Shown one piece after another: positions 2,497 through 5,690 of a stretch of 64,000 nt of DNA. Made by a program: the position numbers and the translations under genes. Below the pieces are notes generated by a model. The model saw only the letters and a program-made list of their open reading frames with translations. It was not told the origin of the DNA and searched no databases. Within the stretch, counting starts at the first letter, position 1, and each line of letters begins with the position of its first letter. The stretch lies in the sequence record MK962750. The stretch is one strand, 5' to 3'. The DNA is from Shigella phage CM8.

Positions 2497-2970
2497 TTAT
2501 TTGATTTGTTTAGCAGACCAAATGCGATCTTTAATAATTTTTTGGATGTCTTCAACATACTCAAGAGAGTGAGCATGTGGATTATCTTTGAAACTATAAG
2601 CACGAGCTAGTTTTTGGCCTTCAGTTTTGATTACTAAAAGCTCTTTAAGGATAGCTTCATATTTGGAGATAATTCCTTTAACAATATTTTTTTCTTGTGC
2701 AGCTTTAGGATCTGCTTTAGGAGCAGGTTTACCCGAAGCCTTTGCAAAAGCAGCGCCAGTAGCAACTAAACTTTTCCAGGCCATACTAACTGCATTTCCC
2801 GTAAATCCTTCCGCTTTCATGTCGCGTGCGAACTGGAATCGCGATTCATCAGAAGCATCTTTATAAGAATATTTACCCGCTGCAATGGCTGCTTTTGCGA
2901 CAGCTTGAATTTCGGTGCTAGATGCTTCATTTAACACCGCTTCATTTAAAAATTGAGTATATGATTTCAT
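2497..2970 (-). CDS. internal protein-like (capsid targeting sequence at N-terminus; IPII/IPIII-like)
   Basis: N-terminus MKSYTQFLNEAVLNEA matches the T4 internal-protein capsid targeting sequence consensus (MKTYQEFIxEA) with L-x-E sites of the type cut by the gp21 prohead protease. Confidence 0.65.
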   Translation of the reverse strand: MKSYTQFLNEAVLNEASSTEIQAVAKAAIAAGKYSYKDASDESRFQFARDMKAEGFTGNAVSMAWKSLVATGAAFAKASGKPAPKADPKAAQEKNIVKGIISKYEAILKELLVIKTEGQKLARAYSFKDNPHAHSLEYVEDIQKIIKDRIWSAKQIK

Positions 2971-3020
2971 CTTATTTCCTGTTTTAATTCGTGGTTTTAA
3001 TATACTTATTTATACTAAAA

Positions 3021-3044
3021 AGCCCCAACCTTTCGGTCGGGGCT
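3021..3044 (-). terminator. hairpin terminator (second copy of the 2466 element)
   Basis: Identical sequence aaaaagccccaacctttcggtcggggctaag. Confidence 0.55.
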
Positions 3045-3353
3045 AAGCCTTGCGGCAACCTTGTCGGGGTTCCACCTGCTAAGGCAAGTGTTTGTACGAA
3101 ACGCCGGGATTCGAACCCGGTTATTAAGCAGTTGACGCTACTCAATATTTTTAAAAGGCCATATCTCGACCATATCCGAACGTTCCGTCAAAAACGCTAC
3201 TCGGCTTACGGCAAAGATATTTCCTCGAATCGATAATTCGGTGCGCCGTTTCTGCTGTGATGTAAGAGGGCATCAATAAACGCAAAGATTATTAACGCAA
3301 TTCCTTACTCAGGGAACATCAGTCCGACGACTTACCGGTAGCGACCCGGTTTC

Positions 3354-3704
3354 TTAATATTCTTTTAAAGCATCAATCTGTTTACGGCGTTCACGCCATA
3401 AATCAATTGCTTCATACGCGGATTCAACATTTCGAATTGGACGGCATTTATATAAAGATTTGTGATTTTGATATTGCGTAGATAACGGAATTTTATCTAA
3501 AAGGTCTTTACGTTCAAAGTATTCGTAACCATCTAAGCCAAATGAACGATTTTTGAGAAATTGCCAATGACCAAATTCGTTTTGAATATAAATATAATCC
3601 GCATGTTGATAAAGTAAATTAATTTCACGAAATGAGATATGTTTTTCATATTCATTGAAGTAAAATGTTAAATCATGAACTACTAAATAAACATTACCTT
3701 TCAT
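3354..3704 (-). CDS. hypothetical protein (116 aa)
   Basis: ATG-initiated ORF immediately downstream of tRNA-Arg on the minus strand; no motif recognised. Confidence 0.55.
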   Translation of the reverse strand: MKGNVYLVVHDLTFYFNEYEKHISFREINLLYQHADYIYIQNEFGHWQFLKNRSFGLDGYEYFERKDLLDKIPLSTQYQNHKSLYKCRPIRNVESAYEAIDLWRERRKQIDALKEY

Positions 3705-3722: not shown

Positions 3723-3798
3723 TGGTCGAGGCAGTAGGGATCGAACCTACGACCTAGGACTTAGAAGGTCCTTGCTCTTCCTTCTGAGCTATGCCCCG
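3723..3798 (-). tRNA. tRNA-Arg (anticodon UCU)
   Basis: 76 nt folded by hand: 7-bp acceptor stem CGGGGCA/UGCCUCG, anticodon arm AGGAC-CUUCUAA-GUCCU, T-arm GUAGG-UUCGAUC-CCUAC, encoded CCA. Confidence 0.88.
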
Positions 3799-3802
3799 TA
3801 AT

Positions 3803-3900
3803 TGGGGTGACCGATGGGAGTCGAACCACCCGAGTCGCAATGACAATGGATTTACAGTCCACACCGCTACCTCTACGGGATAACTCCCCTTAATTCTTAA
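3803..3900 (-). ncRNA. unassigned stable-RNA candidate between tRNA-Ile and tRNA-Arg (tRNA-like, not a canonical cloverleaf)
   Basis: About 100 nt with no ORF, GGGGAG 5' end, TTCGA T-loop-like motif and CCCCA 3' end, but I could not fold a canonical T-stem or acceptor stem. T4 carries two stable RNAs of unknown function in its tRNA region (recalled). Confidence 0.3.
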
Positions 3901-3902
3901 TT

Positions 3903-3977
3903 TGGTGGCCCTGGGTGGAATTGAACCACCATCTGGCGATTATGAGTCGCTTGCTTGAACCTTCCAGCTACAGGGCC
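3903..3977 (-). tRNA. tRNA with anticodon CAU (Ile by analogy to T4, or Met)
   Basis: 75 nt: acceptor GGCCCUG/CAGGGCC, anticodon loop CUCAUAA, T-arm GGUGG-UUCAAUU-CCACC, encoded CCA. Confidence 0.8.
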
Positions 3978-3978
3978 T

Positions 3979-4054
3979 TGGTGCTGATTGACGGAATCGA
4001 ACCGCCGACCTTCTCATTACAAGTGAGTTGCTCTACCTACTGAGCTAAATCAGC
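3979..4054 (-). tRNA. tRNA-Thr (anticodon UGU)
   Basis: 76 nt: acceptor GCUGAUU/AAUCAGC, D-arm GCUC-AGUAGGUA-GAGC, anticodon loop CUUGUAA, T-arm GGCGG-UUCGAUU-CCGUC, CCA encoded. Confidence 0.9.
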
Positions 4055-4059
4055 AAAAC

Positions 4060-4149
4060 TGGCGGAGGCGATAGGATTTGAACCTATGAGTCGCCGGAGC
4101 GACTGCCGGTTTTCAAGACCGGTGCATTAAACCACTCTGCCACGCCTCC
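4060..4149 (-). tRNA. tRNA-Ser (anticodon UGA), long variable arm
   Basis: 90 nt: acceptor GGAGGCG/CGCCUCC, anticodon arm CCGGU-CUUGAAA-ACCGG, long variable arm, T-arm AUAGG-UUCAAAU-CCUAU, CCA encoded. Confidence 0.9.
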
Positions 4150-4155
4150 AAATAT

Positions 4156-4806
4156 TTATATATTGTTAATTTGATTTAGAATTCTTTTTGCTTGAGTATG
4201 ACTTACGCCAATATGCTTAGCATATTTAGACAATTCGCCACGTTTAGAAAAATCATATAATTTAGAAATTTCTATTCTTCTTTTTCTTTCATCCGCAGAA
4301 ACTTTTGCTTCGTTTGCTTTTGCTATTTTACGTTTAGCTTCTTGAGAATGAGTTTTACCAGCAAAGCCATTCTTCATTAATCCATTTGAAGACCATCCTT
4401 TTAATTTTCCGTTAGAATGTGCCTTTTTAACACCCAATGAAATTAATTCGCGTTGCTGATCTGTCATAGGATAATTATTTATATGATCCCATCCACCTTC
4501 ACCTCCAAGTTTTAAATTATACACATCTGGTCTATTTAAAAACTCTTCTGTGACAATATTTTTCTCGGCTTCAAGCATAGATTCTTTATCGTCAAAATAC
4601 TCTAATATTTCTTTAGAAAAATTTTCTATACCATATTTATCTTGGGCTCTTTTTAATAATTTACCAGAACCCATATATCCATCATCTAAATTTTCGGTAG
4701 AATGCACACCAATATAAATTTTATTATTAATTTTATTTGTTATTTTATAAAGATAAAAATGCATATCAGTCCCTAATAAAGAACTGAGCGTCTCACGACG
4801 AGTCAT
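4156..4806 (-). CDS. segB: GIY-YIG homing endonuclease (SegB-like) inside the tRNA cluster
   Basis: FYLYKITNKINNKIYIGV...YMGSGK is a GIY-YIG motif; 216 aa; sits between tRNA-Gly and tRNA-Ser, as recalled for T4 segB. Confidence 0.75.
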   Translation of the reverse strand: MTRRETLSSLLGTDMHFYLYKITNKINNKIYIGVHSTENLDDGYMGSGKLLKRAQDKYGIENFSKEILEYFDDKESMLEAEKNIVTEEFLNRPDVYNLKLGGEGGWDHINNYPMTDQQRELISLGVKKAHSNGKLKGWSSNGLMKNGFAGKTHSQEAKRKIAKANEAKVSADERKRRIEISKLYDFSKRGELSKYAKHIGVSHTQAKRILNQINNI

Positions 4807-4810
4807 AAAT

Positions 4811-4884
<74 letters not shown>

Positions 4885-4889
4885 AAATT

Positions 4890-4976
4890 TGGTGCGAGAA
4901 GTGGGACTCGAACCCACAAGGAAATCATTCCGCAGCATTTTAAGTGCTGTGCCTTTACCAATTTGACCATTCTCGC
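4890..4976 (-). tRNA. tRNA-Leu (anticodon UAA), long variable arm
   Basis: 87 nt: acceptor GCGAGAA/UUCUCGC, anticodon arm CAGCA-CUUAAAA-UGCUG, T-arm GUGGG-UUCGAGU-CCCAC, CCA encoded. Confidence 0.88.
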
Positions 4977-4982
4977 GCTATA

Positions 4983-5591
4983 TTATTTATTACGTGAAAA
5001 AGACTGTTCTATCAATTCTGGACACTTTCGTTCTATCCATTTTCTAGCTTTTTGTGGGCTTATACCTATTATTTTAGCAGCTTTACTAACCCATCCAAAT
5101 TTAGAATAATCGATTTTAACTAATTCTTCGTAAATTTCATCAGTTAAAATCTTTTCATTAATATTTACCAGTAAATGATATAATTTATTATCATTAGCAA
5201 TTTTAATGAATCTTTTATAGTTTCCGCCTTTACTTAAACCTAATGAAGTAATTGCAGATGATATAGTAGCCGAATTTAATAGTGCGTTTAAAATTTCTTC
5301 ATCACTAACATTATAACGCTTTTTATTATTTTTAATATTTTTACCAGCAAAAGTATCAGTTTGCGAATGGCAGTTTGGACATAATAATCTTAAATTTGAT
5401 TTAAGATGATTTTTGTTATTTCCATCAATATGGTCTAATTGCAGAACAATATGCTTATTTTGCCATTTTGAAATTTTACAAATTGCACACTCATATGGAA
5501 AAATATTTTCTTTTATTATTTTGTCTTTCAGCTTTCCTGTACTAAAATTTGGATGTTTTCCTTCAAAAATTTCAGCTAATTTAGTATCCAT
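4983..5591 (-). CDS. HNH homing endonuclease
   Basis: LQLDHIDGNNKNHLKSNLRLLCPNCHSQ is an HNH motif; ORF track start is TTG, first ATG is residue 9; directly upstream of tRNA-Leu. Confidence 0.75.
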   Translation of the reverse strand: MDTKLAEIFEGKHPNFSTGKLKDKIIKENIFPYECAICKISKWQNKHIVLQLDHIDGNNKNHLKSNLRLLCPNCHSQTDTFAGKNIKNNKKRYNVSDEEILNALLNSATISSAITSLGLSKGGNYKRFIKIANDNKLYHLLVNINEKILTDEIYEELVKIDYSKFGWVSKAAKIIGISPQKARKWIERKCPELIEQSFSRNK

Positions 5592-5690
5592 AATATGATT
5601 CCCAATTATTAACAAAGGCTCTCTAACAAGAACCCTTGATGATAGAGGGTATTAATCAGTGCGGTATGAGTTAATAATAACAAATAATTC

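Follow-up and report, generated by a model that had tools for sequence, protein, structure and literature searches.

Positions 2971 to 3353 (minus strand) of the window, meaning the whole 64,000-nt stretch of DNA analyzed, were shown by sequence homology and gene order to be the 3′ end of a T4-type tRNA operon, encoding rnaD and rnaC and followed by a terminator. When the identity of rnaD, rnaC, and the terminator, the tRNA shape of rnaC, its tRNA-type excision, and a role as a tRNA mimic are taken together as one explanation, we regard this as very probably the best account of the region; the role itself is weighed separately below. Both RNAs are already known, having been annotated in T4 for decades and known since the 1970s. 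Paddock and Abelson reportedly sequenced species I RNA (1973-75), which RNase III is reported to cleave in vitro. The RNAC and RNAD transcripts of T4 are classed as late RNAs and were confirmed by Northern blot (PMC9697503), a passage of PMC2330249 that cites Broida and Abelson describes a primary transcript of the T4 tRNA cluster of ~1.75 kb ending after the species I gene, and the function of rnaC and rnaD is described as unknown (PMC3014915; PMC12685909). The absence of a transcript, named beforehand in the first-pass annotation as grounds for rejecting a structured RNA, does not apply, as rnaC RNA is expressed in T4.

Identity of the stretch and layout of the locus

The stretch is located in a T4-like (Tequatrovirus) phage window with six tRNA genes just upstream (3723-4976, all on the minus strand), which were detected by ARAGORN and by Rfam at the gathering threshold. 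Within 2971-3353 itself, no call was made by ARAGORN or by Rfam at the gathering threshold, and no Rfam family matched at E ≤ 10. The stretch was compared by blastn with 50,697 phage records, of which 804 were found to match, nearly all of them T4-like phages of enterobacteria. Several records were 100% identical, including phage Aplg8, in which rnaD (species 2 RNA), rnaC (species 1 RNA), and the terminator are annotated. Identity to T4 (NC_000866) was ~98%; in this genome rnaC (70908-71046) and rnaD (71053-71171) are misc_RNA features directly after tRNA-Arg. Homology of rnaC to its T4 counterpart extended over the full length with 2 substitutions (137 of 139 nt identical), while rnaD differed by one indel and a few 5′ bases. 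Matches to rnaC and rnaD were present in 742 and 733 phage records, respectively. Many GenBank records leave rnaC and rnaD blank, or carry 'hypothetical protein' CDSs and odd tRNA calls (95-nt tRNA-Met, tRNA-Lys, and tRNA-Phe).

The order on the minus strand was found to be tRNA-Arg, ORF, rnaD, rnaC, and terminator (Table 1). Thus, rnaC occupies the distal position of the tRNA operon, between rnaD and the terminator, and rnaD lies immediately 5′ of rnaC with its invariant 5′ and 3′ modules present. Compared with T4, the genes are the same, as are the rnaD-spacer-rnaC-trailer-terminator order and the downstream neighborhood; however, rnaD of T4 starts one base after tRNA-Arg, whereas here a 116-aa ORF intervenes, the TAA stop of which (3356-3354) is overlapped by the first bases of rnaD. 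Because of this overlap, 3′ processing of tRNA-Arg cannot generate the 5′ end of rnaD here, as it could in T4. The T2L 'trna.2 ORF' primers #24 and #25 (PMC2330249) matched the 116-aa ORF with one mismatch each, which identifies it by sequence as homologous to the T2L 'trna.2 ORF' and indicates that this part of the window is T2-like. The strong terminator noted at the first pass was confirmed, with its hairpin at 3044..3021 (minus strand) having a GAAA loop closed by 10 base pairs, 7 of them G-C, and a T run on its 3′ side; transfer of the Aplg8 terminator annotation placed it at ~3043..3012. A 91-nt trailer segment including the terminator had a minimum free energy (MFE) of −38.4 kcal/mol (z = −4.63). 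The sequence TATAAATA, which we take to be the T4 late-promoter consensus, was observed at 3007-3014 (minus strand), immediately past the terminator; the next ORF begins ~40 nt further downstream.

Table 1. Features of the rnaD/rnaC locus, in window coordinates except where a contig is named
Feature	Coordinates	Strand	Description
116-aa ORF (phrog_3355)	3354-3704	-	Function not assigned, no Pfam match; between tRNA-Arg and rnaD
rnaD (species 2 RNA)	3240..3358	-	~119 nt; coordinates transferred from Aplg8, in agreement with T4 rnaD (71053-71171)
Spacer between rnaD and rnaC	3234..3239	-	GAAUUA, 6 nt; Aplg8/T4 annotation
rnaC (species 1 RNA)	3095..3233	-	139 nt as annotated; 100% identical to Aplg8 rnaC
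rnaC acceptor 5′ strand, nt 2-8	3226..3232	-	CGAUUCG; pairs with 3103-3097
rnaC long irregular arm, nt 9-78	3156..3225	-	In the D-arm place; AGG/CCU base, two stems, 3-4-nt bulge, 5-bp apical stem, loop UUGACG
Long-arm apical loop, nt 43-48	3186..3191	-	UUGACG; exact complement of P3 loop CGUCAA (3137-3132)
rnaC hairpin P3, nt 87-112	3122..3147	-	10-bp stem, 6-nt loop CGUCAA (3137-3132)
rnaC T-arm, nt 114-130	3104..3120	-	5-bp stem, loop UUCGAAU
rnaC acceptor 3′ strand, nt 131-137, with U138	3096..3103	-	CGUUUCG, U138 at the discriminator position; from the alignment
Trailer, rnaC to terminator	3045..3094	-	Three small hairpins predicted; conserved in T4
Intrinsic terminator of the tRNA/stable-RNA operon	3016..3044	-	AGCCCCGACC-GAAA-GGUUGGGGCU, then U run; annotated in Aplg8
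Next ORF (phrog_2280)	2497-2970	-	Function not assigned; downstream of the terminator
rnaD-like elements of other contigs	L157 2281-2357; L158 12773-12849; L179 2736-2812	-	Motifs AAGUCGUCGAACUGACGUUCCCUG and UCACAGC..GAAGCGGCGCA kept

The tRNA array of the window differs from that of T4 in being without Gln, Pro, and Ile and in having Met. Three further features were observed in this array: (i) a chimeric pseudo-tRNA at 3813-3889 (minus strand), in the gap between tRNA-Met and tRNA-Arg; (ii) a free-standing GIY-YIG/NUMOD3 (Seg-like) homing-endonuclease ORF at 4156-4806 (minus strand), between tRNA-Ser and tRNA-Gly; and (iii) a free-standing HNH homing-endonuclease ORF at 4983-5615 (minus strand), upstream of tRNA-Leu. 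The first ~77 nt of the pseudo-tRNA matched Aplg8 tRNA-Tyr and continue, from a junction inside the T-arm (GGTTCGACTCC), as the 3′ end of Aplg8 tRNA-His, which reads as if the 3′ part of Tyr, Asn, and the 5′ part of His had been deleted by recombination between T-arms. It scored 22.7 bits against the Rfam tRNA model (cut-off 29) and was not called by ARAGORN.

As the first-pass annotation had noted, the stretch has no ORF of useful length. The longest ORFs were 53 and 44 aa on the minus strand, both with TTG starts, and 81 aa on the plus strand with a GTG start. Several phage records treat the region as protein coding, with a 'hypothetical protein' placed across rnaC or rnaD, and hypothetical CDSs in many GenBank records, together with the existence of ORFs of 44 to 81 aa, would fit this reading. 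Yet these ORFs rely on TTG or GTG starts, change frame and strand from one record to another, and are not conserved, and the substitutions are patterned as paired RNA helices with alignment indels that are not multiples of 3; the probability of a coding function is, in our view, close to negligible. Likewise, a conserved coding gene was found at this site in no relative, which answers the earlier proviso that a gene intact in related phages might have frameshifted here.

Covarying structure of rnaC

For structural analysis, rnaC was numbered such that RNA position N corresponds to window position 3234−N. The single-sequence fold had an MFE of −50.2 kcal/mol (z = −4.55), and 0 of 200 shuffles were as good. 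A MAFFT alignment of 27 distinct homologues from at least nine genera was used, with sequences derived from Tequatrovirus, Mosigvirus, Dhakavirus, Karamvirus, Winklervirus, Kanagawavirus, Gelderlandvirus, Moonvirus, Marfavirus, and unclassified phages. RNAalifold analysis of these homologues revealed a four-way junction of 35 pairs, 23 with compensatory changes. When the rnaC structure was specified explicitly, 92.5% of cells were paired compared with 34 to 48% when the partners were slid by 1 to 3 columns, changes on both sides were found in 20 of the 36 pairs, and the observed covariation score was reached by no shuffle. The G·U pairs in the rnaC stems fit the minus-strand transcript only. 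By this covariation among aligned sequences, rnaC was shown to be a tRNA-shaped four-way junction closed by its own 5′ and 3′ ends and to carry the acceptor/T-arm minihelix of a tRNA. The initial proposal of a structured noncoding RNA with a tRNA-like 3′ domain was therefore essentially right with respect to rnaC, but the stretch holds two RNA genes, and it is the whole of rnaC that is tRNA-like.

The T-arm that had been pointed out at the first pass was found to be real and to belong to rnaC: the motif CCGGG-TTCGAAT-CCCGG at 3120..3104 (minus strand) occurs once in the 64-kb window, no second site appeared when up to 2 mismatches were tolerated, and it arose in 0 of 100 shuffles. Its third (middle) stem pair covaries (U-A, G-C, or A-U), and, as in tRNA, no base separates the T-stem from the acceptor 3′ strand. 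In the acceptor stem, the pairs C2-G137, G3-C136, C7-G132, and G8-C131 were invariant in the 27 sequences, A4-U135 (8 sequences) was replaced by G-C in the other 19, and U5·U134 and U6·U133 were mismatched in 26 of 27. The first-pass annotation had reported no matching acceptor stem at tRNA distance, but a partner does exist ~130 nt upstream (CGAUUCG, 3232-3226), and its two U·U mismatches make it easy to miss. A noncanonical T-loop (UGCAUCC or UGCAUUC) was observed in rnaC of Winklervirus (L004 and L026), with the T-stem and the remainder of rnaC conserved.

Two other pairings of the acceptor 3′ strand were examined and discarded. The conserved partner differs from the complementary strand said earlier to lie about 150 nt away, which corresponds to GAAACG (3252-3247); the latter falls within the rnaD 3′ end as part of the invariant 3′ module, and the 5′ partner within rnaC itself is kept where rnaD is not adjacent. 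A perfect 8-bp complement, ACGGAACG at 3188-3181, which went unnoticed at the first pass, gave rise to a weak 93-nt tRNA-Sec-like match (16.6 bits versus a cut-off of 47). This complement explains the tRNA-Sec-like match as well as the 95-nt 'tRNA-Met' call that an annotation pipeline placed on part of rnaC in one database record. Though 83% paired across the homologues, the internal pairing was rejected because 451 of 500 shuffles reach that level and one of its pairs is broken in 17 of 27 sequences.

The two remaining arms were also found to be maintained by paired changes. All 5 pairs of the long-arm apical stem covary, the mid and apical stems of this arm were recovered by RNAalifold, and the same architecture is predicted for three versions of the arm that are unrelated in sequence. 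All 10 stem pairs of P3 were changed on both sides; this hairpin occupies the place of the anticodon arm but is without anticodon-arm geometry. The linker between the two arms (nt 79-86) is 8 nt long, A/U-rich, and highly conserved. These results bear on the suggestion, also made at the first pass, that the stretch is a tRNA disrupted by an insertion, in which case rnaC would be a decaying tRNA gene and a functionless pseudogene. Such a reading could draw on the canonical T-arm and acceptor stem in an RNA that is without a D-arm or an anticodon loop, and a real tRNA wreck, the Tyr/His chimera at ~3813-3889, does occur in the same window. Nonetheless, the supposed insertion, i.e., the long arm, is conserved, covaries across at least nine genera, and most likely contacts the loop of the other hairpin. 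Moreover, 20 to 23 pairs throughout rnaC, including this arm, have compensatory changes, which shows selection on RNA structure, and the two U·U mismatches are themselves conserved. Since the structure is selected across at least nine genera, rnaC is not a tRNA wreck, and we judge the pseudogene explanation to have a very remote chance of being correct.

The apical loop of the long arm was found to be exactly complementary to the loop of P3. All 6 loop-loop pairs were present in 27 of 27 rnaC sequences, including (i) UUGACG/CGUCAA in 22; (ii) UUGGCG/CGCCAA in 4 Marfavirus sequences; and (iii) UUAGCG/CGCUAA in Yersinia phage MHG19. The covarying variants thus derive from two independent lineages only (Marfavirus and MHG19). 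As the stems flanking both loops covary too, the three helices appear meant to coexist. From the alignment, the two loops most likely pair in a 6-bp kissing contact, either within one molecule or between two. Covariation cannot tell these apart, being equally compatible with an intramolecular contact and a dimer; given how much the length of the long arm exceeds that of P3, the former would need bending at the internal loops. No description of a loop-loop contact in rnaC was found in the literature searched, the 1970s papers lying outside that search.

The conserved loops could alternatively serve a trans-acting base-pairing regulator, with one of its 6-nt loops or the A/U-rich linker pairing to a host or phage RNA and the loop-loop complementarity representing an auto-inhibited or alternative state. 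Consistent with this idea, both loops and linker nt 79-86 are highly conserved, RNAC and RNAD have been loosely termed 'small regulatory RNAs' (PMC9697503), and the adaptation of a T4-like phage to its host was accompanied by a convergent SNP in rnaD (PMC12685909). However, the two loops change together and stay mutually complementary, whereas an external target would hold them fixed; in addition, 6 nt is short for a seed, and no trans-acting sRNA has been characterized in T4 (PMC3014915). Regulation by base-pairing is thus considered unlikely.

rnaD, rnaC distribution, and probable tRNA-type excision

rnaD was found in 11 variants to have an invariant 5′ module (AAGAAACCGGGUCGCUACCGGUAAGUCGUCGGACUGAUGUUCCCUG), which includes the hairpin ACCGG-GUCGCUA-CCGGU at 3350-3334, and an invariant 3′ module (UCACAGCAGAAACGGCGCACC), which ends in ...GAAACGGCGCACC. 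Alignment and per-sequence folding of the same 11 variants revealed that the sequence of the covarying central hairpin between these modules is replaced wholesale while the fold is kept. The single-sequence fold of rnaD was weakly better than that of shuffles (z = −1.66). Overall, rnaD is a structured RNA in its own right, constant at its ends and variable in its central hairpin. Short rnaD-like elements were also detected ~410 nt upstream of rnaC in Marfavirus-type contigs, with a weak nhmmer E-value of ~5e-5 (Table 1), and the rnaD family may extend beyond what is annotated. A hammerhead-like interpretation was considered for rnaD on account of CUGAUG...GAAAC but was discarded, as the Marfavirus rnaD-like element lacks these motifs and no Rfam match was obtained.

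The genomic position of rnaC was found to vary among genera. In Karamvirus, Winklervirus, and Gelderlandvirus, rnaC is positioned between two tRNA genes with tRNA-like spacers of 3 to 10 nt, as in the arrangements tRNA-Trp/rnaC/tRNA-Gly and tRNA-Phe/rnaC/tRNA-Trp. A profile search of 330 to 600 nt on either side of rnaC in the loci of these three genera detected no rnaD. In Dhakavirus JS98 (L031) and vB_EcoM_005 (L034), at ~417-440, rnaD is kept and rnaC is cleanly absent, with the rnaD 3′ end directly joined to the trailer hairpin (ACACTTGCC...), which represents a natural deletion of rnaC. As rnaC is missing from some relatives, it is dispensable in at least some settings. Searches beyond the T4-like phages were also performed. 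Scanning 185,579 bacterial and archaeal genomes for the rnaC motif gave 0 matches and thus no host homologue by that pattern. A loose motif scan of IMG/VR returned almost entirely chance hits among the matches listed (at least 120), and a stricter scan returned 14 IMG/VR loci and at least 120 metagenome loci, which after nhmmer filtering comprised, among the matches listed, already known rnaC sequence types only. The most divergent member (MHG19) retrieved no further lineages when used as a blastn query.

These positions argue against the view that rnaC and rnaD work only in cis within the operon, where they would aid processing or stability or protect the 3′ end as a cap, and do nothing as free RNAs. 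In favor of this view, both lie at the operon 3′ end in T4-type phages, directly before the terminator. Yet rnaC is found mid-array with no adjacent rnaD in Karamvirus, Winklervirus, and Gelderlandvirus, a cap would not need an elaborate covarying body and a loop-loop contact, and the RNAs accumulate in T4 as discrete stable species, ~140 nt in the case of rnaC (PMC9697503). A purely cis-acting role is accordingly regarded as highly unlikely.

The tRNA slot of rnaC in other genera suggests that rnaC is presumably excised by the tRNA-processing machinery. In Marfavirus, U-CCA is encoded directly after the acceptor stem of rnaC (CGTTCCGTCCAA), whereas in T4-type rnaC the acceptor stem is followed by U-ACAA and CCA is not encoded. 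T4 tRNA precursors without an encoded CCA are described, as is the preference of RNase P for a 3′ CCA (PMC11143913). In the proposed route, the host tRNA-processing machinery would cut rnaC out of the polycistronic tRNA transcript, with (i) the 5′ end generated by RNase P cleavage; and (ii) the 3′ end generated by trimming and then CCA addition, the latter being proposed because T4-type copies do not encode CCA. Taken together, the tRNA slots, the Marfavirus U-CCA, the CCA-less T4 precursors along with the CCA preference of RNase P, and the minihelix favor RNase P excision with 3′ trimming and CCA addition as the likeliest way in which rnaC would mature. The 95-nt tRNA call on part of rnaC was also counted in favor of this route. 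The annotated rnaC ends (U1 and A139) are one base off per side relative to this tRNA-like prediction, in which the RNA would extend from C2 to U138 plus CCA (140 nt).

Relationship to other RNAs and possible function of rnaC

The features of rnaC were compared with those of RNAs that carry a tRNA or a tRNA-like domain. Similar to canonical tRNA (RF00005), rnaC has a four-way junction and a 7-bp acceptor stem that abuts a 5-bp T-stem with the consensus loop UUCGAAU; it is also found in tRNA arrays with tRNA-like spacing, and some homologues encode CCA after the discriminator. However, rnaC is not a canonical cloverleaf, as an arm of ~70 nt is present instead of a D-arm and a 10-bp stem with a 6-nt loop instead of an arm with a 7-nt anticodon loop. 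The interhelix linkers are 0, 8, 1, and 0 nt in rnaC compared with 2, 1, 4-5, and 0 nt in tRNA, and a tandem U·U is present in the acceptor stem. RF00005 did not match rnaC even at E ≤ 10, the best-scoring member of the clan being tRNA-Sec (16.6 bits; cut-off 47).

The tRNA-like domain of tmRNA (SsrA), which is included in a list of RNase P substrates (PMC11143913), resembles rnaC in that a stable, non-decoding RNA has ends that form an acceptor/T-arm minihelix without an anticodon. In contrast to tmRNA, rnaC is much smaller and has neither a tag frame, for which 139 nt leaves no room, nor a pseudoknot ring, nor the G3·U70 alanine identity pair, and it does not belong to this class. ARAGORN tmRNA detection and the Rfam tmRNA models gave no call on rnaC; the permuted tmRNA model matched the T-arm only, at 10 bits. 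YrlA, a bacterial Y-RNA-like RNA, is a small stable RNA in which a T-arm-bearing tRNA-like module is combined with an extended helical arm, and its action is attributed to protein binding and not to decoding. Its ends form the Ro-binding stem and its tRNA-like part is internal, whereas the ends of rnaC form the acceptor stem, and no sequence or Rfam match to YrlA was found in rnaC.

Based on its structure, rnaC cannot decode because it has no anticodon loop and the 6-nt loop of P3 is taken up by loop-loop pairing; the rejection of rnaC by ARAGORN and by the Rfam tRNA models was likewise counted in favor of a non-decoder. We tentatively suggest, as one possibility, that rnaC is a stable, non-decoding tRNA mimic that may bind or titrate a tRNA-recognizing protein of the host or the phage. 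The acceptor/T-arm half would then serve as the handle and the locked double-arm half as the distinctive mark. More speculative, and rather unlikely as it stands, is the broader proposal that rnaC constitutes a conserved tRNA-mimic family of enterobacterial T4-like phages, in which the arms would be locked or dimerized by the loop-loop contact and the RNA would act as a decoy or adaptor for a tRNA-recognizing factor, for example a host tRNA-targeting defense nuclease or a tRNA-modifying or processing enzyme.

As the outcome of a sequence scan, the finding is an ordinary one: two RNA genes long annotated in T4 and present in more than 700 sequenced phages. Both are often left unannotated or miscalled and match no Rfam family, and a curated model could be built on the alignment and structure generated here. 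What the comparative structure (above all the covarying loop-loop contact) and the tRNA slots add to the old question of function is modest and does not answer it; nonetheless, the covariation-backed structure (minihelix, tandem U·U, and loop-loop contact) and the tRNA-slot placement point to concrete experiments on that question. If true, the decoy or adaptor reading would assign a role to species 1 RNA after 50 years, along with a defined structure for mutagenesis.
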